Virus record (IMG/VR): IMGVR_UViG_3300031853_000019
Span: 1 to 64,000 of that record
Length of the DNA stretch: 64,000 nucleotides
Strand: one strand, 5' to 3'
Source: a virus
Taxonomy: Duplodnaviria > Caudoviricetes
Shown: positions 492-40,978 of the stretch, piece by piece
Numbering within the stretch: position 1 is the stretch's first letter
Layout: each line of letters starts with the position of its first letter
Position numbers and translations under genes: made by a program
The notes under the pieces: generated by a model
What the model was told of the DNA's origin: nothing
The model's database searches: none
The model's input: the letters and a program-made list of their open reading frames with translations, nothing else

Positions 492-695
492 TTAAGGCTG
501 TAATATCCATTGGGATTGATGATTTAATAAATAAACTGCACCAGTCCCAATAACAGTTACTTTACTACCAGTTCCGCATATTGGTTGCACTGGTAGCTCA
601 GAAAGATATTCAGCTGAATCTATTACATATTCTGTATAATAACTTCCACTCTGTGAATTTTGGTAAACAGCAGAATAATGCTTAGTTTGCACCAT
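492..695 (-). CDS. small hypothetical protein, similar to 10973..11155
   Basis: ORF track; GGAGG RBS; shared LP-x-G(T/S)GS-x-V-x-VI pattern. Confidence 0.7.
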   Translation of the reverse strand: MVQTKHYSAVYQNSQSGSYYTEYVIDSAEYLSELPVQPICGTGSKVTVIGTGAVYLLNHQSQWILQP

Positions 696-877
696 TTTTC
701 AGCCTCCTTTTTAGTTTTCATCTATAATATATATAAAAAAATATAATATTATCTTGAACTATTTTGTCATTAAAAGCAAAACTGAAATAAAAAAGTTGAA
801 AACTGGTTTGAAATTTAGAAACCGAGAGTAACACCCGCAACCCGCCTGAGTACCTACCCATATTCCATAACGCAAAA

Positions 878-900
878 AAGTGGTGCATAAAGCACCACTT
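878..900 (-). terminator. intrinsic terminator after phosphoesterase gene
   Basis: AAGTGGTGC/GCACCACTT inverted repeat, T-run on minus strand. Confidence 0.7.
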
Positions 901-1625
901 TATTCACTAAAATATTTAGCTTCAAATGTATCTAAATCAAGTAAAGCAATCTTCTTACTTTCAATAGTACCTAAATCTATATCAATCTTATGACCTTCCG
1001 CATATATTGCTACTTTAGGATCGTCGTCATTAATATAATACTTTAAATCATATGGATGATAATATCTTAAAGTTTGTGTAGGGGTATGACCATGAACTAT
1101 ATAATCATTATCCCGCGGTGATTCCTTGTCATGGGGCCAGGTCTCATTGATATGATCTCTATCCCAAAGGTAATCTACTCCCCACCTGCAATAAAATGAG
1201 TCAGGAGTAAAACCCGCATGGCTAAGATGTATTTCTTGACCTTTTGCATTTGTATAACTTTTGTACAAAGGAAGATTCTCTACTTCCTTTACCCACTTTA
1301 AAATCTGCTCTTCTGAATAAAGTTCAAAAGTATCAAGTGTTTTCCCGCCACCATTATAAAAAAGCCATAAATCTGCGGAATTAGCACTATAATCATCACT
1401 TAATAGCAAAGGAGTCGTGCGGGAAAAGAATTTTTCATGGTTTCCTTTAATGAAGATAATCCGCGGGTCATTGAAGATTAACTCTAGCATCCTCAAACCC
1501 CCATCCCCGCGATCCATAGCATCACCGAGAAAATATAAAGTATCATCTGCGGCAAGCGAATCTATTAACTTTTTAGCAATATCATAATGTCCGTGCCAAT
1601 CTGAACTAGCATATACTTTGCCCAT
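900..1625 (-). CDS. calcineurin-like metallophosphoesterase (phage Ser/Thr phosphatase-like)
   Basis: DxH (SDWHG), GDxxDRG (LGDAMDRG), GNHE, HAG and GHT motifs. Confidence 0.9.
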   Translation of the reverse strand: MGKVYASSDWHGHYDIAKKLIDSLAADDTLYFLGDAMDRGDGGLRMLELIFNDPRIIFIKGNHEKFFSRTTPLLLSDDYSANSADLWLFYNGGGKTLDTFELYSEEQILKWVKEVENLPLYKSYTNAKGQEIHLSHAGFTPDSFYCRWGVDYLWDRDHINETWPHDKESPRDNDYIVHGHTPTQTLRYYHPYDLKYYINDDDPKVAIYAEGHKIDIDLGTIESKKIALLDLDTFEAKYFSE

Positions 1626-1670
1626 CGTGATTACTCCTTTTCTTTTGTATATTGAGTAATCAAGATGGAG

Positions 1671-3173
1671 CTAGTCCACCTTGATTACCTCGTATCTATC
1701 GGCAAGAAGCACCTTCAGCATCATGTCTGTTGCAGTCAAACCAGCCATTACTGCTTCCATCTGTGACATTGAGAAGCCAGAGATGTAATTGAAGGAATCT
1801 CCAATCGCAGGAATGTTGTTTGTTCTAGCGTCTAAGTTCCAGAAGGTAACCTTAGGAAGCTTATAGCCATGAGCATTGAACTTCTTCTCCATGCGCTCAA
1901 GCAGAGTACCTACTGTTGCAGAGGTAACACCATCAAAGCGTTCAGTTCTCCATATACCGCCGCCACCGCAAGCTGCATCAAACTCCATATCGGAAAAGAT
2001 GTAAAGTCTTGCGGGAAGGTCGGTCTGGGATGCCTTAGTCTTGAGAGCAGTGTCTAAGATCAAGTCAAAGACCTTCTCAAGGTTAGTGTTCATGCCCCAG
2101 TCTGCCTGAATACATCTTTTTACCTTATCAACAATGTTATCTCCTTCAAACTCTACGAGCTGAGGGTTCGCGCTAAAGGTAATGAAGTGTCCAGCGAAAG
2201 GACCATGTGACTTCTCGGCTACATATGCCCCCATACCGACTGCCGCCGCTACAGGAGTACCATACATAGAGCCAGATACATCAACTACCGCAATAGCATT
2301 TTCCTCACGACCGCAGTAGTAATCCTTCAGGTTATCCCAATACTTCTGCATTGTTGCTTCAAAAACATCATCAGATATATCGTACCTATTCTTATAAAGA
2401 ATCTTATCAACAATATTAACAGGGTTAAGCACTGCTGCATTAACCTTAGTTGTCTTGCTCTCCATAAATGCCTTATATCTTGCGGCAGTTACTTCCTTAA
2501 CCGCAAAAGCATTTCTGTACTTCATGCCCGCAACAGAAGGAATCTTATCGAACTGGATTTCATCCCATCTATTTTCAGACATAAGTCTTTCAAGCACATT
2601 AATCTTCTCTCTAAGACTAGAAAGAATCTTTCTATAAGTCTTAGGGGACATATTAAACTGCTTCATGAAGTATCTAGCCATCTCCTTAGTAGTTGTGCTA
2701 GATGCGTTCTCAGAAGGCATCCACTTACCAAGAAGAGAAGGAACTTCACAATGAGTATCCTCAAGAAGCTGTCTGTGTACAATATCTCCCATAGTAGATA
2801 CAAGAGGAGTATTGTAACAAATCTTAATCAAATCATCCCATCTACCGAACTCAGGAATGACATTTAAGAACTTTGCAGCGATCTCTACATCGTTCTTAAT
2901 TAACCAGCGGTAAGCAACTCTGAAGAAGCGTCTTTCGCCCTGACCGCCACGTACATCACGAAGATAGAACAAGCACTTCATAGCGAGGTTCTTATCCTGG
3001 CGGTAAGCATCTCCGAAAAGTGCTTCTACTTCCTTATCTGTTCTATTGCGGTAAGCGCCGCCTATAGAGAACATATCCAAGACATGATCCAGCGTAGAGT
3101 TATGCTTAACCGCACCATTTTCGGTATATCCAAAGTTAGTTTCGTTCTTTAATCCATTTAAAAATGCTGACAT
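1671..3173 (-). CDS. DUF2828 / TROVE-like protein with C-terminal vWA domain (Ro60-like)
   Basis: TENGA, RDVRGGQGER, GRWDDL, KWMPSE motifs; MIDAS DVSGSM and SDMEF. Confidence 0.85.
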   Translation of the reverse strand: MSAFLNGLKNETNFGYTENGAVKHNSTLDHVLDMFSIGGAYRNRTDKEVEALFGDAYRQDKNLAMKCLFYLRDVRGGQGERRFFRVAYRWLIKNDVEIAAKFLNVIPEFGRWDDLIKICYNTPLVSTMGDIVHRQLLEDTHCEVPSLLGKWMPSENASSTTTKEMARYFMKQFNMSPKTYRKILSSLREKINVLERLMSENRWDEIQFDKIPSVAGMKYRNAFAVKEVTAARYKAFMESKTTKVNAAVLNPVNIVDKILYKNRYDISDDVFEATMQKYWDNLKDYYCGREENAIAVVDVSGSMYGTPVAAAVGMGAYVAEKSHGPFAGHFITFSANPQLVEFEGDNIVDKVKRCIQADWGMNTNLEKVFDLILDTALKTKASQTDLPARLYIFSDMEFDAACGGGGIWRTERFDGVTSATVGTLLERMEKKFNAHGYKLPKVTFWNLDARTNNIPAIGDSFNYISGFSMSQMEAVMAGLTATDMMLKVLLADRYEVIKVD

Positions 3174-3232
3174 AACTTTTTCTCCTTTTCTCTCTTTTGT
3201 ATATATATTATATCAAAAATTTGCAAAAAAAT

Positions 3233-3260
3233 AAAGGCTTAACTATTAAGCTAAGCCTTT
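3233..3260 (-). terminator. terminator at end of tRNA cluster
   Basis: AAAGGCTT/AAGCCTTT inverted repeat followed by T-rich tract on minus strand. Confidence 0.6.
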
Positions 3261-3309
3261 GTAATAAAATCTACCTCATTATATAATAATGGAGGACACG
3301 GTAGATAGA

Positions 3310-4135
3310 AGTACCATGTAGGAGTTGAACCTACTTGCGCGGAGTGCATTAAAAATGCTTATAATAATTCCCATTCCTCCTTTGAATAATTATTAATATC
3401 ACTTTTCTTTCTTGGAAGGGAATAACTATCACACCATTTTCTTATTGCATTATCAGTTACTCCAAATATTTTTCCTATTTCTGTAAAAGGCTTTTCTCTT
3501 ATTAATTGTTTTAATTTTTCTCGATCTGGTCTTTCTATTACTTTTCTTCTAGTTTTATTAATACAAGATAGACATAACCCTTCTCTACTAATTATATTTC
3601 CACATTCTTTGCAAAAATATTTTTTTGTTTTGCATTGAGAAGAAATATTATATAACTCATCATCTGTCATTCTATAATAACTATTTAATATATTTTCTGC
3701 AAGATATTGAGTATCAGTAAGTTTAATTGTCTTTTGATTTGATGTTTCATCTACTGGAATTAAATAAACCTTATCTTTCCATACAGTTGCAAAATAATCT
3801 ATTTCATCAGAAGTATATTTATGCTTTGAATGATTACTACTTTTCATATTATTTTGAGTGCAACATTGAAAAGTAAAAGATGATTCATTATTTTGAATAG
3901 ATTTTTTAGTTTGAATTTTTAAAATTTCATAACCAGTATCAACAATTAAATCATATCTTGATGCATTGTAGCTAGGTATTGAAATATCAAAACCATATCT
4001 TAAAAATTCTTCTTGGACTTTTAATTCTATAATTTGCCCCTTAAATAAATTTAATCTACTTGGTTCCATTTTACATTTAGGAATTAAATAAGTTTTTTAA
4101 TGCAGTCCGCTGCATAGCCGTTCTGCCAATGATAC
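3310..4135 (-). tRNA. tRNA-Cys(GCA) split by a 755-nt insertion in the anticodon loop (5' half 4135-4101, 3' half 3345-3310)
   Basis: Halves join to GTATCAT/ATGGTAC acceptor, GCGGA-CTGCA|AC-TCCGC anticodon arm, GTAGG-TTCAACT-CCTAC T arm, U73 discriminator. Confidence 0.85.
3359..4069 (-). CDS. PD-(D/E)XK homing endonuclease (I-Ssp6803I-like) with C-terminal Zn finger and HTH, inside tRNA-Cys
   Basis: KGQIIE...SRYDLIVD...KIQTK...YTSDEIDYFA; CxxC...CxxC; IGKIFGVTDNAIRKW. Confidence 0.8.
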   Translation of the reverse strand: MEPSRLNLFKGQIIELKVQEEFLRYGFDISIPSYNASRYDLIVDTGYEILKIQTKKSIQNNESSFTFQCCTQNNMKSSNHSKHKYTSDEIDYFATVWKDKVYLIPVDETSNQKTIKLTDTQYLAENILNSYYRMTDDELYNISSQCKTKKYFCKECGNIISREGLCLSCINKTRRKVIERPDREKLKQLIREKPFTEIGKIFGVTDNAIRKWCDSYSLPRKKSDINNYSKEEWELL

Positions 4136-4140
4136 AATTA

Positions 4141-4217
4141 TTACAAAGGACAATTATAATATGATAAGATAATCAAGATAAATTCATTGTTAATATAATT
4201 TGCTGTACGTCCTTTAA
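4141..4217 (-). ncRNA. CAGCAA-stem RNA copy 3 (candidate Y-like RNA)
   Basis: AAAGGAC-GTA-CAGCAAAT...GTCCTTT-GTAA. Confidence 0.55.
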
Positions 4218-4222
4218 AGAAT

Positions 4223-4295
4223 TTACAAGACACACCTTTTCGCTCTTTACAATCCCAAATTATACGCTAAAAAGAATTTGCTGCAAGTGTCTTAA
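4223..4295 (-). ncRNA. CAGCAA-stem RNA copy 2 (candidate Y-like RNA)
   Basis: AAGACAC-TTG-CAGCAAAT...GTGTCTT-GTAA. Confidence 0.55.
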
Positions 4296-4612
4296 CAAAA
4301 AATTAAAATAGTCTAGCCTGCAACTGGGGGACAACCACCGCCCTCCTACTCCAAAGTACTCGTCAGTCTCGGCGTGAATAAGGGTCTCTATTCACTAAGT
4401 TGTATCTAGCACTTTTGTGCCCGTCGGCACAGATCTAAAAAATTAATCCGCATACTCTATCGCTGGCGGTTCGCGTAGTGATATTTAGTACATTTCACTT
4501 CTCCTTTTTTCTGTTGAAATGGAAAGCCTTTACACTAATCACAGTCTAAACTAAAAGTCACATCCTCTTGACCATTTCTGTTCTCTAGAATCCCGTACTT
4601 TGGTCTGATGAG

Positions 4613-4685
4613 TAGCGGAGACGGGACTCGAACCCGTAACCCCCTGCCTATGAAACAGGTAACCTTCCAATTGGTCTACTCCGCG
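4613..4685 (-). tRNA. tRNA-Met(CAT), initiator-like (unpaired C1)
   Basis: Cloverleaf; CCTGT-TTCATAG-GCAGG; C1:U72 mismatch. Confidence 0.85.
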
Positions 4686-4692
4686 TTATTAG

Positions 4693-4766
4693 TTGGGGTA
4701 CAGGGACTTGAACCCTGGACCTCTAGAACCCAAATCTAGCGCTCTACCAAACTGAGCCACACCCCA
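4693..4766 (-). tRNA. tRNA-Pro(TGG)
   Basis: Cloverleaf; CTAGA-TTTGGGT-TCTAG. Confidence 0.9.
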
Positions 4767-4770
4767 ATAT

Positions 4771-4913
4771 TTACAAAGCGAAGAAAGAGGATTCTTGGAG
4801 CCAGGAGTAGTTTAAGCACACCTCTTTCAATTCAGACATAACTACTCATTTAACAGCGATCATTAATAATATTTTCAAATAACTTGCAATAAATTTGCTG
4901 AAATTCGCTTTAA
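4771..4913 (-). ncRNA. CAGCAA-stem RNA copy 1 with internal H-type pseudoknot
   Basis: AAGCGAA-TTT-CAGCAAAT...TTCGCTT-TGTAA; interleaved GAGTAGTT/AACTACTC and AAAGAGG/CCTCTTT. Confidence 0.55.
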
Positions 4914-5155
4914 TATATTAAAACTAAGAATCATTCCACGGCTTCCCACTTTATAGCCGAAATTTTTGTGCACCATCAGGGTACTGTTGTATCACAAATC
5001 TCTTCGGAGCGACCGTTACGACTTAGGTGACCTCGTGCGTGAGGCAATTCTTCAGTTTTAATTTCTTCGTTTAATATATATTGAGCATATATGAACTCTA
5101 AGATGTCTTTAATTTCTTCTGTTTTTGTCATATTTACTGCTCACTTTCTATATAT

Positions 5156-5184
5156 ATTATATAATAAATTTTTATAAATTTCAA
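5156..5184 (-). promoter_or_regulatory. sigma70/SigA-type promoter, AT-rich phage class; also at 7209-7237, 7928-7956, 8855-8883, 11549-11577 and upstream of many genes to 22.5 kb
   Basis: TTGA(A/T)(A/T)-17 nt-TATAAT with recurring TTTATAAAAATTT spacer and TATATA after the -10. Confidence 0.8.
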
Positions 5185-5194
5185 ATATTTTTAT

Positions 5195-5321
5195 TTACTA
5201 GACACGGTATAATATCTCTGAGGCTTTACCAATTAAGCTATAGAGTGAGTTGACTCTAGTGGGACTCGAACCCACAAAAATCAGACTTAGCACGATATGA
5301 ATTATTGCTGGCTGTGTCTAA
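5195..5321 (-). ncRNA. YrlA-like Y RNA: circularly permuted tRNA mimic closed by a CAGCAA stem
   Basis: TAGACAC/GTGTCTA end stem; TCTGA/TCAGA; T arm GTGGG-TTCGAGT-CCCAC placed BEFORE loop-closed acceptor TAGAGT-CAACTC-ACTCTA and D arm GCTT-AATTGGTA-AAGC. Confidence 0.75.
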
Positions 5322-5322
5322 G

Positions 5323-5394
5323 CTCCCCGAGTAGGACTCGAACCTACAACAGCTCGGTTAACAGCCGAGTGCTCTACCATTGAGCTACCGGGGA
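5323..5394 (-). tRNA. tRNA-Asn(GTT)
   Basis: Cloverleaf; CTCGG-CTGTTAA-CCGAG. Confidence 0.95.
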
Positions 5395-5444
5395 TCAAGA
5401 GCGGTTAGACTATATCTCAAACCTAACCGCTTTTGTTAGTTTAA

Positions 5445-6266
5445 TTAACCTAACAATGAAAGGACGCCTTGAGTAGACTGATTTGCCTGTGCAAGCATAG
5501 ACTGAGCAGCTTGCTGAAGAATATTATTCTTAGTGTAATTAGTCATCTCAGCAGCCATATCTGTATCACGAATCTGGCTTTCTGCAGATGTTAAATTTTC
5601 ACTATAATTCTTCAAATTATTAATTGTATATTCAAGTCTATTCTGTTTTGCGCCAAGAGAAGATCTTGCAGCGGAAACAGTCTTAATAGCATTAGTTACT
5701 CTGCTCATTGTAGCGGCTGCCGCACTGTGGCTATCAACCGCGATTGCAGATGCACCCGCAAGAGAAAGTCCTGATGTATCCATCTTTGCAATATCAATCT
5801 GCATATTTTCACCTGCATTAGCACCTACTTGAAGTTGCTTGCCAGTGAAAGAACCATCAAGAAGTTTAGTTCCATTGAACTGAGCCTTATTAGCAATAGA
5901 ATCAATCTCTGCCTGAAGTTCAGTCATTTCGTCTTTGATAGCATCTCTATCTTCATCTGCATTAATATCGTTAGCTGCCTTGTTAGACAATTCACCCATG
6001 CGCTGAAGAATAGAATGAATCTCATTAAGATTACCTTCTGCTGTCTGAATGGCGGAAATGCCATCCTCAGAGTTCTTAACTGCTTGATTGATACCACGGA
6101 TCTGATTTCTCATTTTCTCACTGATGGAGAGACCAGCTGCATCGTCTGCTGCACGGTTTACTCCAAAGCCAGAAGAAAGTTTCTCTGTGCTCTTTGCTAC
6201 TGCTTTCACATTCTGTGATAACATTCTGTTTGTATTTGCTGCTTGTAAATTGTGTTGTACTACCAT
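5445..6266 (-). CDS. fliC: flagellin (D0/D1 only, 273 aa), Lachnospiraceae-type
   Basis: MVVQHNLQAANTNRML...EKLSSG...AADDAAGLSISEKMRNQIRG...; C-terminus RSSLGAKQNRLE...SQIRDTDMA...AQANQSTQGVLSLLG; GGAGG RBS before ATG at 6266. Confidence 0.97.
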   Translation of the reverse strand: MVVQHNLQAANTNRMLSQNVKAVAKSTEKLSSGFGVNRAADDAAGLSISEKMRNQIRGINQAVKNSEDGISAIQTAEGNLNEIHSILQRMGELSNKAANDINADEDRDAIKDEMTELQAEIDSIANKAQFNGTKLLDGSFTGKQLQVGANAGENMQIDIAKMDTSGLSLAGASAIAVDSHSAAAATMSRVTNAIKTVSAARSSLGAKQNRLEYTINNLKNYSENLTSAESQIRDTDMAAEMTNYTKNNILQQAAQSMLAQANQSTQGVLSLLG

Positions 6267-6288
6267 AGTAATTACCTCCTTGTAAATA

Positions 6289-6308
6289 ATACTACTTCCT
6301 TGTAGTAT
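6289..6308 (-). promoter_or_regulatory. CsrA-type site: GGA in a hexaloop hairpin in the flagellin leader
   Basis: ATACTAC-AAGGAA-GTAGTAT; second ACAAGGAGG overlaps the RBS. Confidence 0.55.
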
Positions 6309-6345
6309 GTACTTTTTCATTGTTACTAGCGCGAACGCGCTTTAT

Positions 6346-6417
6346 CACCTCTACGGGACTTGAACCCAGTATCTGGAGATTGAGAGTCTCCTATCCTAGC
6401 CACTTAGACGAAGAGGC
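6346..6417 (-). tRNA. tRNA-Glu(CTC)
   Basis: Cloverleaf; GGAGA-CTCTCAA-TCTCC. Confidence 0.9.
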
Positions 6418-6422
6418 GTTAT

Positions 6423-6493
6423 CACTCCAGCGGGACTTGAACCCAGCATCTAAGCCTTGAAAGAGCTTTATCCTAGCCTTTAGAAGATGGAGC
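6423..6493 (-). tRNA. tRNA-Glu(TTC)
   Basis: Cloverleaf; AAGCT-CTTTCAA-GGCTT. Confidence 0.9.
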
Positions 6494-6645
6494 GTAGAGG
6501 GGAGCTATCCCATCAAATATATTTATTAATAAGATAGCTCTATTATAAATTACTTGTATTTAAGTTAAACCCTGTTTAGCATCTTTAGTTTCGCTATAAG
6601 TCTTGTGAGGTAAACGGGTTAGAAAAACATCTCAGACTGACACAA

Positions 6646-6717
6646 AGCTCCCCATGGGACTCGAACCCACAGTAACCTCATTACAAGTGAGGGGCATTAC
6701 CATTATGCTAAAGGAGC
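6646..6717 (-). tRNA. tRNA-Thr(TGT)
   Basis: Cloverleaf; CCTCA-CTTGTAA-TGAGG. Confidence 0.9.
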
Positions 6718-6893
6718 AAATAACCGAGTGAGTAGTTTCAACCTCACGCATCCTTGGCGGGTTCAACGAATCGTAACTAGGGTAGCTTACGCGGATTGGT
6801 TACCGCCGCCCTTTGTGGTGTCTCCCCACTGCTTCCCGCCATACAGGCTTTATTCTCTTCACGGCTTTTAATGCTTGCCTATCGGTTATTAAT

Positions 6894-7006
6894 ATGCGGG
6901 TAAGGATTTGCACCCTACATGATAAGCATTCCTACTTGTCCATTAAACGGATCTTCGTATCTTATCTAACAATAAGCCTTAGCGTTTACCTATTCCGCCA
7001 CCGCAA
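6894..7006 (-). ncRNA. tRNA-Leu-like RNA with an expanded, non-canonical central region
   Basis: TGGCGGAATAGGTAAACGC D arm, TAGGG-TGCAAAT-CCTTA T arm, TGCGG/CCGCA acceptor; about 60 nt insert, no normal anticodon arm. Confidence 0.55.
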
Positions 7007-7245
7007 ATGGTCTTTCCTAGTTATTGTCCTTCAGTCCCAACTGGCTGACAGTATAAGATAAGGGGAAAACCTCGAAGGGATTACATTGGAATGTTTCACA
7101 TCCCTTATCTTATTGGTTAAGGAGGTGGATATTTCAGACTCTCACCATTATTGATTCGTCCACTCTTCTGTTTATTGGATTTCTGTCATCTCTTAACCTT
7201 ACATATATATTATATAATAATTTTTTATAAATTTCAAATTTAAAA

Positions 7246-7318
7246 TGTGCCCGGTGGGATTTGAACCCACGATACCTGGATTAAAAGTCCAGTGCCATAA
7301 CCTCTAGGCGACGGGCAC
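7246..7318 (-). tRNA. tRNA-Lys(TTT)
   Basis: Cloverleaf; CTGGA-CTTTTAA-TCCAG. Confidence 0.93.
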
Positions 7319-7322
7319 TTAG

Positions 7323-7403
7323 TACTCCCGGTGGGACTCGAACCCACACGCTCTAAGCCTAGGATTTTAAGTCCTATATGTCTACCCATTCCATCACGGG
7401 AGC
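7323..7403 (-). tRNA. tRNA-Leu(TAA)
   Basis: Cloverleaf with long variable arm; TAGGA-CTTAAAA-TCCTA. Confidence 0.93.
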
Positions 7404-7411
7404 CTAATTAA

Positions 7412-7483
7412 TAGGGAGATTGGGACTTGAACCCAAAAGACAACCTTATCAGAGTTACATGATAACCTTTTCATCATCTCCCT
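7412..7483 (-). tRNA. tRNA-Ile(GAT)
   Basis: AGGGAGA/TCTCCCT acceptor; TAACT-CTGATAA-GGTTG (two G-U pairs). Confidence 0.8.
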
Positions 7484-7492
7484 TTAAAATAA

Positions 7493-7563
7493 CTGGGGTG
7501 CTGGGATTTGAACCCAGTCGCCAAGAGTCAAAGTCTTGTGTGCTACCTTTACACTACACCCCA
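7493..7563 (-). tRNA. tRNA-Gln(TTG)
   Basis: Cloverleaf; CAAGA-CTTTGAC-TCTTG. Confidence 0.93.
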
Positions 7564-7572
7564 ATATTAAAA

Positions 7573-7646
7573 TGGACATTCAGGGACTTGAACCCTAGAC
7601 CGATGGTTTATGAGACCATTGCTCTAACCAACTGAGCTAAATGTCC
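7573..7646 (-). tRNA. tRNA-Met/Ile2(CAT), elongator type
   Basis: Cloverleaf; ATGGT-CTCATAA-ACCAT. Confidence 0.9.
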
Positions 7647-7650
7647 ATAA

Positions 7651-7723
7651 CAGGCACCGTAGGACTTGAACCCACACCGTACAGTTTTGGAGACTGCCGT
7701 GCTACCATTTACACCAGATACCT
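7651..7723 (-). tRNA. tRNA-Trp(CCA)
   Basis: Cloverleaf; GCAGT-CTCCAAA-ACTGT. Confidence 0.9.
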
Positions 7724-7960
7724 ATAAACCCGTAAAGGGAAGTGAGTTTGAGTTATTGGCATATAAACCCTACATTCTTCTCAAAATACGCCTTTTCTAT
7801 GTCCAAAAAGAACACTTGTGTTAAATAAGCCATAGCCAGCACCAGCACCAGATTTTAACGAGTTTACTCTCGATAATGAATAAGAAACTTTTCTTCATAA
7901 ATACTTCATTTCTCATTCACTATAATTATTATATAATAATTTTTATTACTTTTCAAATAA

Positions 7961-8040
7961 TGCGGGCGGAGGGACTTGAACCCTCACGGTTTCCCACGAG
8001 TTCCTAAGGCTCGCGTGTCTGCCAATTCCACCACACCCGC
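7961..8040 (-). tRNA. tRNA-Leu(TAG)
   Basis: Cloverleaf with variable arm; CGAGC-CTTAGGA-ACTCG. Confidence 0.92.
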
Positions 8041-8045
8041 ATAAG

Positions 8046-8131
8046 CGCCGTGTAAAGGACTCGAACCTCTACTACCGTTAAGTAGACTACGGTTTTCAAG
8101 ACCGCTGCAATACCAATTCTGCCAACACGGC
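8046..8131 (-). tRNA. tRNA-Ser(TGA)
   Basis: Long variable arm; GCGGT-CTTGAAA-ACCGT. Confidence 0.92.
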
Positions 8132-8135
8132 ATAG

Positions 8136-8219
8136 CGCCACCACCGCGACTCGAACGCAGACAGCCGTTAAGCTGGACTCCTTAGCAGGGAGCTAGGATA
8201 CCTATTACCTCATAGTGGC
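8136..8219 (-). tRNA. tRNA-Ser(GCT)
   Basis: Long variable arm; GCTCC-CTGCTAA-GGAGT. Confidence 0.88.
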
Positions 8220-8330
8220 TTTTTTATTTTGATATTTTTTAACTTTTGTATAGAGATGTTTGTTAGCATAAAATAAATCTAACATATTGAAAATATCTTG
8301 AATTGTTTTCATATATTATCTCCTTTCAAA

Positions 8331-8404
8331 TACGAGCGGTGGGGATCGAACCCACATAAAGCAGGTTTAGAAGACCTGTGCCTATCCAATTGGGCGACGC
8401 CCGT
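8331..8404 (-). tRNA. tRNA-Arg(TCT)
   Basis: Cloverleaf; CAGGT-CTTCTAA-ACCTG. Confidence 0.92.
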
Positions 8405-8410
8405 AGATAA

Positions 8411-8484
8411 TAGATCCCAAGGGACTCGAACCCTCAACCTTTTCGTTCGTAGCGAACTGCTCTATTCCATTGAGCTAAGGATCT
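8411..8484 (-). tRNA. tRNA-Arg(ACG)
   Basis: Cloverleaf; GTTCG-CTACGAA-CGAAA. Confidence 0.9.
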
Positions 8485-8488
8485 ATAG

Positions 8489-8560
8489 TACCGACAGAGG
8501 GACTTGAACCCACAACTTCTTCCTTGTAAGGGAAGCACTCTCCCATTGAGTTATGTCGGT
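8489..8560 (-). tRNA. tRNA-Val(TAC)
   Basis: Cloverleaf; CTTCC-CTTACAA-GGAAG. Confidence 0.92.
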
Positions 8561-8564
8561 ATAG

Positions 8565-8647
8565 TGGGCAGGGATGGACTCGAACCATCGGTGTTTCTAA
8601 TGTAACAGATTTACAGTCTGCCGCCTTCGCCACTAGGCTACCTACCC
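8565..8647 (-). tRNA. tRNA-Tyr(GTA)
   Basis: Variable arm; GCAGA-CTGTAAA-TCTGT. Confidence 0.93.
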
Positions 8648-11269: not shown

Positions 11270-11341
11270 AGCCCGTAGTGGGAATCGAACCCACTTCTCC
11301 TCGTTGGAAGCGAGGAATTCTAGCCGGTAAACTATACGGAC
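11270..11341 (-). tRNA. tRNA-Gly(TCC)
   Basis: Cloverleaf; CCTCG-CTTCCAA-CGAGG. Confidence 0.92.
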
Positions 11342-39880: not shown

Positions 39881-40978
39881 TTGGAAGAAGAACTAAAACT
39901 AGACAATACTTTAACGACTGCGGAAGAGCGCGTCGAACTAGTTAAAAAAATTATTGAAACTTCACCTCCCGAGAAATTAAATTCTAAATATTTAAATATA
40001 TTAGCCGACTACATAGTGTTGCCGCTTAGCGATCAAGAGAAAAAGGAAAAGAAAATTCTTACCCCTAATCGAATGACTCATATCAAAGAGCGGGAAACCA
40101 GCTTAGAGGGTATGGCGGTTAAATTTGAAACAAGTGATGGAGCACATAATATTGAAACACACTTAGAAGATGCAATTTATAATTTAGCGATTAATGATAA
40201 ACATGTATATTTAACAACAAGAAAATCACCTGTTACTCAAGAAGAATTAGAAAATATACCGGGATTGAAGAAAATTCGAGACCAAATTGATAGTCTTGAA
40301 GAACAGTTCAAGGTCGCGCGGGGACGCACTAAGTATTCTATTAAAAGTAATATAATTGAATTATGGAAAGACTTCCATGAACTTCGCAAAAACTACAAAA
40401 AACCTATTGGATATGCTAAATTAACAAAATCATTAAAAAAATTAGATTTATACGAAACAGTAAAAATAGAAAATCAAGAAATTATCATAGAAGATTCAAA
40501 TATTTCATTATTAATTCCACAGCATATTTCATTCCTATTATGTAATTATTCCAAAATCAAAGAAGATAATCATGGCAATTTTGAAGCGGATATCCTTTAT
40601 ACAATGATGGCGCTTGATGAATTGGCGGAGACCGCTTTGCAAAATAATCCAATGTATAGAGATGTATTAATCTATAAAATTGATGGATTAAAAAATAATG
40701 ATATTCAGCGGGAACTTGAGCAAAAATATGGTTATAGATATTCATGTGAATATATTTCTTCTTTATGGCGTCAAAAGATACCTAAAATGATTGCGGAGCA
40801 AGCTAAAAAAGAATATCTTGTTTGGTATTATACAGAAAAAGAAGTAGGTACATGGAAGCGTTGTAGTAGATGTGGGCAAATTAAATTAGCACATCCTTAT
40901 TTCTTTTCAAAAAATAAAAGCAGCAAAGATGGCTTTTATAGTATCTGCAAGTGTTGCAGAAATAAGAAAAAGGAGTGA
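39881..40978 (+). CDS. hypothetical DNA-binding protein (HTH and C-terminal Zn finger)
   Basis: KNNDIQRELEQKYG...YISSLW; CSRC...ICKCC. Confidence 0.6.
   Translation: MEEELKLDNTLTTAEERVELVKKIIETSPPEKLNSKYLNILADYIVLPLSDQEKKEKKILTPNRMTHIKERETSLEGMAVKFETSDGAHNIETHLEDAIYNLAINDKHVYLTTRKSPVTQEELENIPGLKKIRDQIDSLEEQFKVARGRTKYSIKSNIIELWKDFHELRKNYKKPIGYAKLTKSLKKLDLYETVKIENQEIIIEDSNISLLIPQHISFLLCNYSKIKEDNHGNFEADILYTMMALDELAETALQNNPMYRDVLIYKIDGLKNNDIQRELEQKYGYRYSCEYISSLWRQKIPKMIAEQAKKEYLVWYYTEKEVGTWKRCSRCGQIKLAHPYFFSKNKSSKDGFYSICKCCRNKKKE

Follow-up and report, generated by a model that had tools for sequence, protein, structure and literature searches.

Gene content and layout of the locus

The sequence analysed here (the window) is the first 64 kb of the 82.7-kb IMG/VR virus record IMGVR_UViG_3300031853_000019, a member of the Caudoviricetes with a CheckV completeness of 61%. 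Close to its start lies a group of features that is entirely on the minus strand: a tRNA array, four small RNAs, a split tRNA, a gene for a Ro60-like ring protein (1671..3173; Ro-like gene) and a gene for a phosphoesterase (900..1625). We interpret this group as a phage ribonucleoprotein (RNP) module of the Ro60/Y-RNA kind, in which a divergent DUF2828-type ring protein, small RNAs sharing a closing stem and a CAGCAA motif (handle RNAs) and the phosphoesterase would serve in tRNA-centred surveillance or repair, and we put the probability of this reading at roughly 0.6. The initial annotation had listed a DUF2828-vWA gene with the MIDAS motif DVSGSM at 1671..3173 (-), a metallophosphoesterase directly downstream on the same strand and, upstream on that strand, CAGCAA RNAs, a split tRNA and 20 other tRNAs; all of these were recovered, the proteins by Pfam (with the motif present, and PF00149 at 900-1625) and the RNAs by ARAGORN, Rfam and a pairing-based element detector.

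In the direction of transcription, the tRNA array (8647..4612) with the four stem+CAGCAA elements is followed by the split tRNA, a terminator, the Ro-like gene (3173..1671), the phosphoesterase gene (1625..900) and another terminator. The first terminator-like hairpin (3233..3260, minus strand; 12-bp stem and T-run) would end the transcript of the tRNA/RNA array upstream of the Ro-like gene, and a putative extended -10-like promoter element, TGATATAAT, read from the sequence at the level of consensus, lies ahead of that gene at 3207..3215 (-). The second hairpin, with a 10-bp stem including 5 GC pairs and a T-run (877..901, minus strand), closes the Ro-like/phosphoesterase unit. Between the stop codon of the Ro-like gene and the phosphoesterase there is a 45-nt gap that holds an AAGGAG ribosome-binding site and, when scanned, no terminator-like site. 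Because terminators flank the pair and none lies in between, the two genes appear, from their sequence, to be a co-transcribed unit with the phosphoesterase second. The contig stops 0.9 kb beyond the phosphoesterase, within a GH25 lysin gene. In this last segment, a 67-aa open reading frame (ORF) at 492-695 (-) follows the phosphoesterase; it is without a family match, has a homologue of 58% identity at the equivalent position of one related locus (L173; related loci carry L numbers), and in another (L165) its homologue directly follows the Ro-like gene. A megablast search of positions 900-5460 against cultured phages gave a tRNA-level match only.

A DUF2828-type protein with the architecture of Ro60

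The Ro-like gene (1671..3173, minus strand) encodes 500 aa, consisting of a DUF2828 helical-repeat part and a DUF7788 vWA domain. Both families are matched far above their curated cut-offs (PF11443 DUF2828, E 5.5e-27, 95.1 bits vs. 29; PF25043 DUF7788, E 6e-45, 153.6 bits vs. 27.1), and residues 1-495 match phrog_850, named 'RNA-binding protein' (E 4e-123). The MIDAS is complete, and its residues D298, S300, S302, T363 and D395 are invariant across 36 homologues. The nearest homologues are P0001 (97% identical) and P0002 (74% identical).

We built an AlphaFold2 model on the 36-sequence alignment (predicted local distance difference test score, pLDDT, 81; predicted template modelling score, pTM, 0.71) and compared it with known structures by two independent methods. 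In a Foldseek search of the PDB, all twelve matches at E <= 0.001 were Ro60/TROVE structures (E 7.6e-8 to 7.7e-5), coming from Thermus phage phiLo, Xenopus, Deinococcus and human, with 9kop, 9l5y, 1yvr and 2nvo at the top (E 8e-8 to 7e-7; best probability 1.00); vWA-only proteins enter the list from E 5e-3. An exhaustive VIA search gave Z 16.1 to phiLo Ro60 over 409 of the 500 residues (model 29-498, root-mean-square deviation 4.5), followed by Deinococcus Rsr (Z 14.1) and Xenopus Ro60 (Z 13.9), and the remaining matches (Z <= 10.3) are confined to the C-terminal vWA domain. Because the full-length structural matches are Ro60 proteins alone, the protein as modelled has the Ro60 architecture of a helical-repeat ring and a vWA domain. 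A toroidal HEAT+vWA fold had been set beforehand as the feature on which the comparison with Ro60 depended, and it is this fold that the Foldseek and VIA matches return.

DUF2828-type proteins are numerous: the homologues number at least 7954, and a gene of this type is present in 710 cultured-phage records, some of which, mainly mycobacteriophages, name it 'Ro-like RNA binding protein'. Carriers include Felix O1-like, Listeria, Staphylococcus, Enterococcus, Campylobacter, Vibrio and cluster L mycobacterium phages, and plants also. The label 'Ro-like' is thus already in use for DUF2828 proteins in phage annotation (SEA-PHAGES, PHROGs), and the papers found to mention DUF2828 are silent on its function.

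Four handle RNAs upstream of the Ro-like gene

The four small RNAs follow a common plan, with a 5' strand starting W-A-G, the CAGCAA motif 2-3 nt past the helix, a variable interior and a 3' strand ending C-U-W-G. All are on the minus strand. Handle RNA 1 (5197..5321) abuts tRNA-Asn and has the stem TTAGACAC / GTGTCTAG with CAGCAA around a permuted tRNA-like module. Handle RNA 2 (4773..4912, 140 nt; stem TAAAGCGAA / TTCGCTTTG, then CAGCAA) ends 6 nt before tRNA-Pro. Handle RNA 3 lies at 4225..4294 (stem TAAGACAC / GTGTCTTG, then CAGCAA), and handle RNA 4 (4143..4216; stem TAAAGGACG / TGTCCTTTG, then CAGCAA) ends 8 nt before the split tRNA; in the relative L164, a homologue of handle RNA 4 precedes tRNA-Cys. 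When a covariance model of the handle (R1) was run on the first 13 kb, these four elements were the four top matches, and the next match scored 10.7 bits. Two of the four are outside the training set of the model, namely handle RNA 1 (20.3 bits, E 0.028 for the 13 kb) and handle RNA 2, the weakest of the four (17.7 bits, E 0.094 for the 13 kb).

Handle RNA 1, which shares the strand of the Ro-like gene and sits 2.0 kb upstream of it, also resembles a known bacterial Y RNA. It matches the Rfam family YrlA (RF02553) over the full model (1-114) with 38.9 bits (E 1e-5), a score below the gathering threshold of 69 bits, and the Rfam alignment places a T-arm, an acceptor-like middle hairpin and a D-arm in the permuted order of YrlA. 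Its folding z-score is -3.05. The Ro-binding motif GNCGAA(N)G is absent from it, and its 5' strand, GACACAGCCAGCAAUAAUUC, is without CGAA. Rfam has no family for the short stem+CAGCAA elements. We also considered CAGCAA as part of a -35 box, as in the TTGCAG-16-TATAAT of handle RNA 3, and rejected this because a -10 box is missing from most members and the 5' strand has a covarying partner on the 3' side in every one.

The handle RNA family in related phages

We fetched 80 viral loci encoding relatives of the Ro-like protein (45-57% identity; 963 kb) and searched them for such elements. We define the family by a closing helix W-A-G-R-N.. / ..N-Y-C-U-W-G, CAGCAA 0-3 nt after the 5' strand, and a position on the strand of a nearby DUF2828 gene; the four RNAs of the window fit this definition. 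On the strand of the gene, the pairing-based detector found 136 elements, compared with 9 on the opposite strand and about 10 per strand in shuffles. They occur in 64 of the 80 loci, 129 of them upstream and 5 downstream of the Ro-like gene. Same-strand tRNAs are present in 73 of the 80 loci, and opposite-strand tRNAs in none. In an alignment of 44 short elements, the helix spans 7-9 bp, 87.5% of its cells are paired, and 8 of 9 pairs show compensatory changes. Its covariation score of 0.539 compares with 0.177 in shuffles (0 of 500 reach 0.539) and <= 0.196 for slid partners, a covariation count that is partly circular because the detector choosing the sequences requires pairing, while the strand and control-locus statistics are not circular.

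Run on the 80 loci, the model R1 gave 121 matches at E <= 1; every match is on the strand of the gene, and many fall outside the training set. The control set consisted of 81 phosphoesterase-centred loci (961 kb of similar phage DNA), gathered from an alignment query, a single-sequence query having given one locus; 12 of them hold a Ro-like gene and 69 do not. R1 had 10 matches in this set, all within 7 of the 12 loci that hold a Ro-like gene, and none in the 69 loci that lack one. The RNA family is therefore linked to the Ro-like gene as well as to its strand.

The interiors of the elements repeatedly contain parts of tRNAs. A tRNA-arm-like hairpin is present in 53 of 110 unique elements, compared with 5.6 in shuffles, and the census of these hairpins counted 29 T-arms; 'CGA' and 'CAA' loops, taken as candidate anticodons, were rejected in this census as T-loops. 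In eight short handle RNAs there is a 5-bp hairpin whose loop, CUUUUAA, is identical to the anticodon loop of tRNA-Lys(UUU) and whose stem covaries (L003:3911-3970, L004:5749-5825, L052:621-685, L058:4049-4110, L062:5190-5254, L064:5494-5572, L070:1613-1688 and L051:5765-5829). Eight others (L013 type) contain whole circularly permuted tRNA-Tyr(GUA)-like bodies, including the ..CCA end.

The distant Mycobacterium phage LeBron has the same pairing of gene and RNAs. Its gp53, annotated 'RNA-binding protein', is a DUF2828+DUF7788 protein and not Pfam TROVE, and three ACAGCAA-handle RNAs lie directly downstream, within 300 nt (L236:5459-5711, which is about 40201-40453 of NC_014461.1), the middle one being YrlA-like (39.8 bits). 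As LeBron is cultured and genetically tractable, it offers a system in which the pairing of protein and RNA could be studied.

The phosphoesterase and the RNA-repair genes of related phages

The second gene of the unit (900..1625, minus strand; phrog_246) encodes a lambda-phosphatase-type dinuclear metallophosphoesterase of 241 aa, with a PF00149 Metallophos match at E 1.3e-14. The motifs DxHG, GDxxDRG, GNHE, H and GH are complete and invariant, the catalytic residues being D9/H11/G12, G34-D35..D38-R39-G40, G61-N62-H63-E64, H136 and G179-H180. The closest characterised relative is lambda phosphatase (1g5b), which is matched over the full length with E 1.7e-7 from the single sequence and 3e-20 from a profile. 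The profile also matches, in the PDB, ApaH (E 3e-11) and 4j6o (E 6.5e-11), which we take to be the phosphatase domain of Clostridium thermocellum Pnkp. Lambda phosphatase has 2',3'-cyclic phosphodiesterase activity in vitro. The phosphoesterase is not fused to a kinase or ligase.

Direct adjacency to the Ro-like gene is limited to the subclade of this phage. The phosphoesterase directly adjoins the Ro-like gene in 4 of the 80 viral loci (L001, L016, L021 and L040) and lies further downstream, within about 6 kb, in another 6. Adjacency is also retained in L164 and L173, the two nearest relatives from metagenomes whose contigs reach far enough, which share 73-74% identity in the Ro-like protein and 48-60% in the phosphoesterase. 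Seen from the phosphoesterase, a Ro-like gene lies within 6 kb in 12 of the 81 closest relatives, always upstream and on the same strand.

A survey of repair genes in 49 related phage records, which have shared ancestry, shows a conserved gene block. An RNA ligase of the Rnl2 type (PF09414) is present in 42 of the 49, always on the strand of the Ro-like gene, and lies 1.6-15 kb downstream of that gene in 32 records. The phosphoesterase family is found in 39 records, and in 35 of the 37 that have both it is at most 8 kb from the RNA ligase (median 2.5 kb). An AAA_33 P-loop kinase is present in 44 of the 49 and often follows the phosphoesterase or the ligase immediately. L162, the record with the closest IMG/VR relative (57% identity in the Ro-like protein), illustrates the arrangement, with the order Ro-like gene, phosphoesterase, an 85-aa ORF, an MVP-like gene (831 aa), PTH2 (peptidyl-tRNA hydrolase), an HNH ORF, a 91-aa ORF, an OB-fused RNA ligase, two small ORFs and the kinase. 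Other genes recurring downstream of the Ro-like gene in the 80 loci are an RlaP-like nucleotidyltransferase (15), DUF5662 (12) and DUF7192 (10). Kinase, phosphoesterase and ligase together have the composition of a heal-and-seal pathway, and we therefore read the phosphoesterase as a probable RNA end-healing enzyme and not a protein phosphatase; this gene-block context in relatives is the main support for such a role. As our contig stops 0.9 kb after the phosphoesterase, the region in which relatives keep the ligase and kinase genes is missing here.

A separate observation concerns the MVP-like gene. In 9 of the 80 loci, a full-length copy (806-836 aa; MVP_shoulder and Vault_3) lies at most three genes downstream of the Ro-like gene (L162:1320-3815, and also in L054, L057, L058, L062, L065, L066, L067 and L016). 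This placement puts a homologue of the vault shell beside a TROVE-fold/vWA protein and stem-closed small RNAs.

The tRNA array and neighbouring features

The phage tRNA array (4612..8647, minus strand) contains 18 tRNAs found by ARAGORN and one found by Rfam only, with handle RNAs and a flagellin-like ORF interspersed. Across the window the tRNAs total 20, 19 of them called by ARAGORN and one, at 6422-6494, added by Rfam; a tRNA-Gly lies outside the array at 11270-11341. The split tRNA (3310..4135, minus strand), found by ARAGORN with introns allowed, has a 755-nt insert in the anticodon loop. This insert is nearly filled by an ORF (3359-4069) for an endonuclease with PD-(D/E)XK (PDDEXK_5) and HNH PHROG matches, and is flanked by a 10-bp inverted repeat (GCATTAAAAA / TTTTTAATGC); a group I intron had no Rfam match in the split tRNA. 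ARAGORN calls this tRNA Gly(GCC). It is most likely tRNA-Cys(GCA), because an intact tRNA-Cys(GCA) occupies the equivalent position in L164 (5493-5563).

Three near-identical promoter-like sites of the form TTGAAA-17-TATAAT (11 of 12 positions matching), on the minus strand at 7928-7956, 7209-7237 and 5156-5184, subdivide the tRNA/RNA array, and the last of them precedes a 51-aa ORF (4976-5131) and handle RNAs 2-4. Between tRNA-Met and handle RNA 3 there is a non-coding stretch of 317 nt (4295-4611, minus strand) with a G+C content above its surroundings; neither Rfam (E <= 10) nor any of the fetched loci gave a match to it, and it may be another structured RNA. The array also contains a complete flagellin-like ORF at 5445-6320 (-), which matches Flagellin_N (E 1e-41), Flagellin_C (E 2e-28), NCBIfam 'flagellin Hag' (277 bits) and phrog_16088, and has homologues by tblastn in 2 of the 81 phosphoesterase-centred phage loci.

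Interpretation and alternative explanations

On the reading that we prefer, the four small RNAs would be transcribed together with the tRNAs and, because they abut tRNA genes, would probably be released by tRNA-processing enzymes. The handle, a closing stem of 7-9 bp with CAGCAA, may bind the ring protein by analogy with the binding of the Y-RNA stem by Ro60, a protein that takes up Y RNA on its outer face and the ends of misfolded RNA in its central hole. The variable module (the permuted tRNA-like domain in handle RNA 1, and in relatives a T-arm, a mimic of the Lys(UUU) or Tyr(GUA) anticodon arm, or a whole tRNA body) could recruit tRNA-handling enzymes or damaged tRNAs, or could serve as a tRNA decoy. 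The phosphoesterase would most likely remove 2',3'-cyclic or 3'-phosphate ends from cleaved RNA and so carry out healing in a heal-and-seal pathway that resembles a split Pnkp, with the kinase and the Rnl2-type ligase of this phage either encoded beyond the contig end or supplied differently. The role of such a module would be tRNA surveillance, repair or mimicry in infection, for example against host anticodon nucleases.

Several results weigh against this reading. The Ro-like protein is recognised by fold and not by sequence: PF05731 (TROVE) had no match in the record at E <= 10, neither phmmer nor the 36-sequence profile recovered a Ro60 structure, or similarity to any other solved structure, from the PDB, and RNA binding by DUF2828 proteins is a prediction. 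Known Y RNAs of bacteria and phages carry a GNCGAA/CGAA motif that the handle does not have. For the three shorter, AU-rich RNAs, single-sequence folding is no better than in shuffles, so that the evidence for them is comparative, and the covariation count carries the partial circularity given above. The nearest characterised relatives of the phosphoesterase, lambda PPase and PrpA/B, are protein phosphatases, and direct Ro-phosphoesterase adjacency occurs in about 7 of about 150 loci examined. Because the related phages share ancestry, their conserved gene blocks are not independent observations. The absence of a ligase from the window, already remarked in the initial annotation, holds for the whole 82.7-kb record, and a search of the rest of the record for RtcB, Rnl (RNA_ligase, RNA_lig_T4_1) or a CCA-adding enzyme (PolyA_pol), proposed at the same time, gave no match; the Pfam search of the record likewise found no MVP_shoulder, RlaP or AAA_33.

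It is possible, if rather improbable, that the phosphoesterase has no part in a genuine RNP of Ro-like protein and handle RNAs and is instead a NinI/lambda-type Ser/Thr protein phosphatase, acting on host phosphoproteins and merely co-transcribed among accessory genes. Its best characterised relatives (1g5b and E. coli PrpA/PrpB), the name of phrog_246 ('NinI-like serine-threonine phosphatase') and the rarity of direct adjacency (5 of 81 viral loci), with a Ro-like gene near in 12 of 81 phosphoesterase relatives, all agree with this. However, wherever a Ro-like gene is near it is upstream on the same strand, and the close ligase in 35 of 37 records, often with an AAA_33 kinase as the next gene, gives the composition of a split Pnkp. 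The profile match to 4j6o points the same way, as does phrog_8238, an 'RNA ligase' family whose 737-position profile includes the matching phosphoesterase segment. We consider it unlikely that the stem+CAGCAA elements serve in the punctuation, processing or stability of phage tRNA operons, with no protein partner, and co-occur with DUF2828 genes through a shared tRNA region. The elements do sit between tRNAs and end a few nt before the next one, tRNA arrays are found in nearly all related loci, and binding of the handle to the protein is a prediction. Yet 12 of the 81 phosphoesterase-centred loci contain tRNAs and the handle matches are confined to loci with a Ro-like gene, the LeBron RNAs lie directly downstream of the gene in a stretch without annotated tRNA features, and the elements have the architecture of Y RNAs, handle RNA 1 matching YrlA from end to end.

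The DUF2828 protein could also be a vWA/MIDAS protein-interaction factor, such as a cofactor in assembly or of a chaperone, or a component in the lumen of an MVP (vault-like) shell, and not an RNA-binding analogue of Ro. This would fit the vWA-only structures that match its C-terminal domain (Z about 10), the MVP-like genes downstream in 9 of 80 loci and the lack of sequence similarity to TROVE, but we hold it to be very unlikely, given that Ro60 proteins alone match over the full length, with the ring of helices, that the gene is tightly linked to structured RNAs and that most loci, this record included, are without an MVP gene. TEP1 (TROVE+vWA) is regarded as the RNA-binding subunit of eukaryotic vaults (10.1101/872010), and therefore a location in the vault lumen and a Ro-like function are not exclusive.

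The initial proposal of a Ro60-like/Y-RNA/phosphoesterase module is supported, within the reach of computation, by the fold, a strand-locked and covarying RNA family and a ligase/kinase block in relatives, and its biological role is still a proposal. The suggestion that the system is undescribed stands for the RNA handle and for the module as a whole, which appear to be undescribed in the literature searched and in Rfam, and does not stand for the 'Ro-like' label of DUF2828 proteins, which SEA-PHAGES and PHROGs already use. For DUF2828, a very large family without an assigned function, an RNA partner and an enzymatic neighbourhood would provide a testable system, with cultured DUF2828-carrying phages for which genetics is available. 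If our interpretation is true, it would show how large phages guard or mimic tRNAs in infection, would extend Ro60/Y-RNA biology past the TROVE sequence family, and might account for the Class I RNAs of dictyostelids and for the origin of the vault RNP. More tentatively still, as a possibility that we think doubtful at present, DUF2828 proteins and CAGCAA RNAs could be a widespread branch of Ro/vault-type RNPs, in which interchangeable tRNA parts act as decoys or sensors of tRNA-cleaving defences and broken tRNAs are passed to a split Pnkp-like set (phosphoesterase, AAA_33 kinase and Rnl2-type ligase), in some phages perhaps inside an MVP shell; the module would then be a viral counterpart to the Ro, vault and Class I systems of eukaryotes, or their forerunner.

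Comparison with known systems

Heal-and-seal RNA repair is carried out by T4 Pnkp with Rnl1/Rnl2 and by bacterial Pnkp-Hen1. The present locus has a phosphoesterase of the lambda-phosphatase type, to which relatives add a P-loop kinase and an Rnl2-family ligase in a co-directional block beside tRNA genes. In contrast to Pnkp, these are separate genes rather than one polypeptide, and no Hen1 methyltransferase was seen; this record holds the phosphoesterase only, and the repair set is coupled to a Ro-like RNP. Phage RNA-repair repertoires have been overviewed elsewhere (PMC7824862).

The handle RNAs also resemble dictyostelid Class I RNAs. According to Kjellin et al. 2021 (PMC7919456), these are RNAs of ~60 nt in which a short covarying stem joins the 5' and 3' ends, an unpaired 11-nt motif with near-invariant T3, C6, C9, A10 and A11 follows the 5' stem strand, the interior is variable and a conserved short 3' tail extends past the stem. 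The motif positions fit ..U..CAGCAA, which is a resemblance in position data. Unlike the handle RNAs, Class I RNAs are eukaryotic, have their own promoters and are reported to bind an RRM protein, and no published link between them and DUF2828 is known.

The vault RNP, with its MVP shell, TEP1 (TROVE+vWA) and vault RNA, differs from the module in that this record has no MVP gene, that PARP or NACHT/WD40 parts are absent and that a shell is conjectural; the likeness lies in the MVP-like gene near the Ro-like gene and RNAs in 9 of the 80 relatives' loci.

There are also parallels with Ro60 systems. Bacterial Ro60 (Rsr), with YrlA, YrlB, Yrn1 and RYPER with PNPase (PMC4201824), differs in that the phage protein is without a Pfam TROVE match or HMMER-detectable similarity, the handle has CAGCAA and W-A-G...C-U-W-G stem ends instead of GNCGAA, the phage RNAs are embedded in a tRNA array, and RtcB is absent here. 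In both, a helical-repeat ring is combined with a vWA/MIDAS domain, the genes of the partner RNAs share the strand and are a few kb away at most, and there are links to RNA-repair genes. Bacterial Y RNAs, like the handle RNAs, combine a closing stem, an adjacent conserved unpaired motif and a variable module, and bacterial Ro60 loci have at least one RNA with a permuted tRNA-like domain (T-arm, hairpin, D-arm), as here. The Ro60 of Thermus phage phiLo binds two upstream Y-like RNAs (Yrl1/Yrl2, with a CGAA motif) and host PNPase, and no tRNA array or phosphoesterase is reported for it (PMC12135203). It is a canonical TROVE protein whose RNAs carry CGAA, which sets it apart from the system described here. 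Still, phiLo Ro60 (9KOP, 9L5Y) is the best structural match to our protein, and it is likewise encoded by a phage, with Y-like RNAs upstream.

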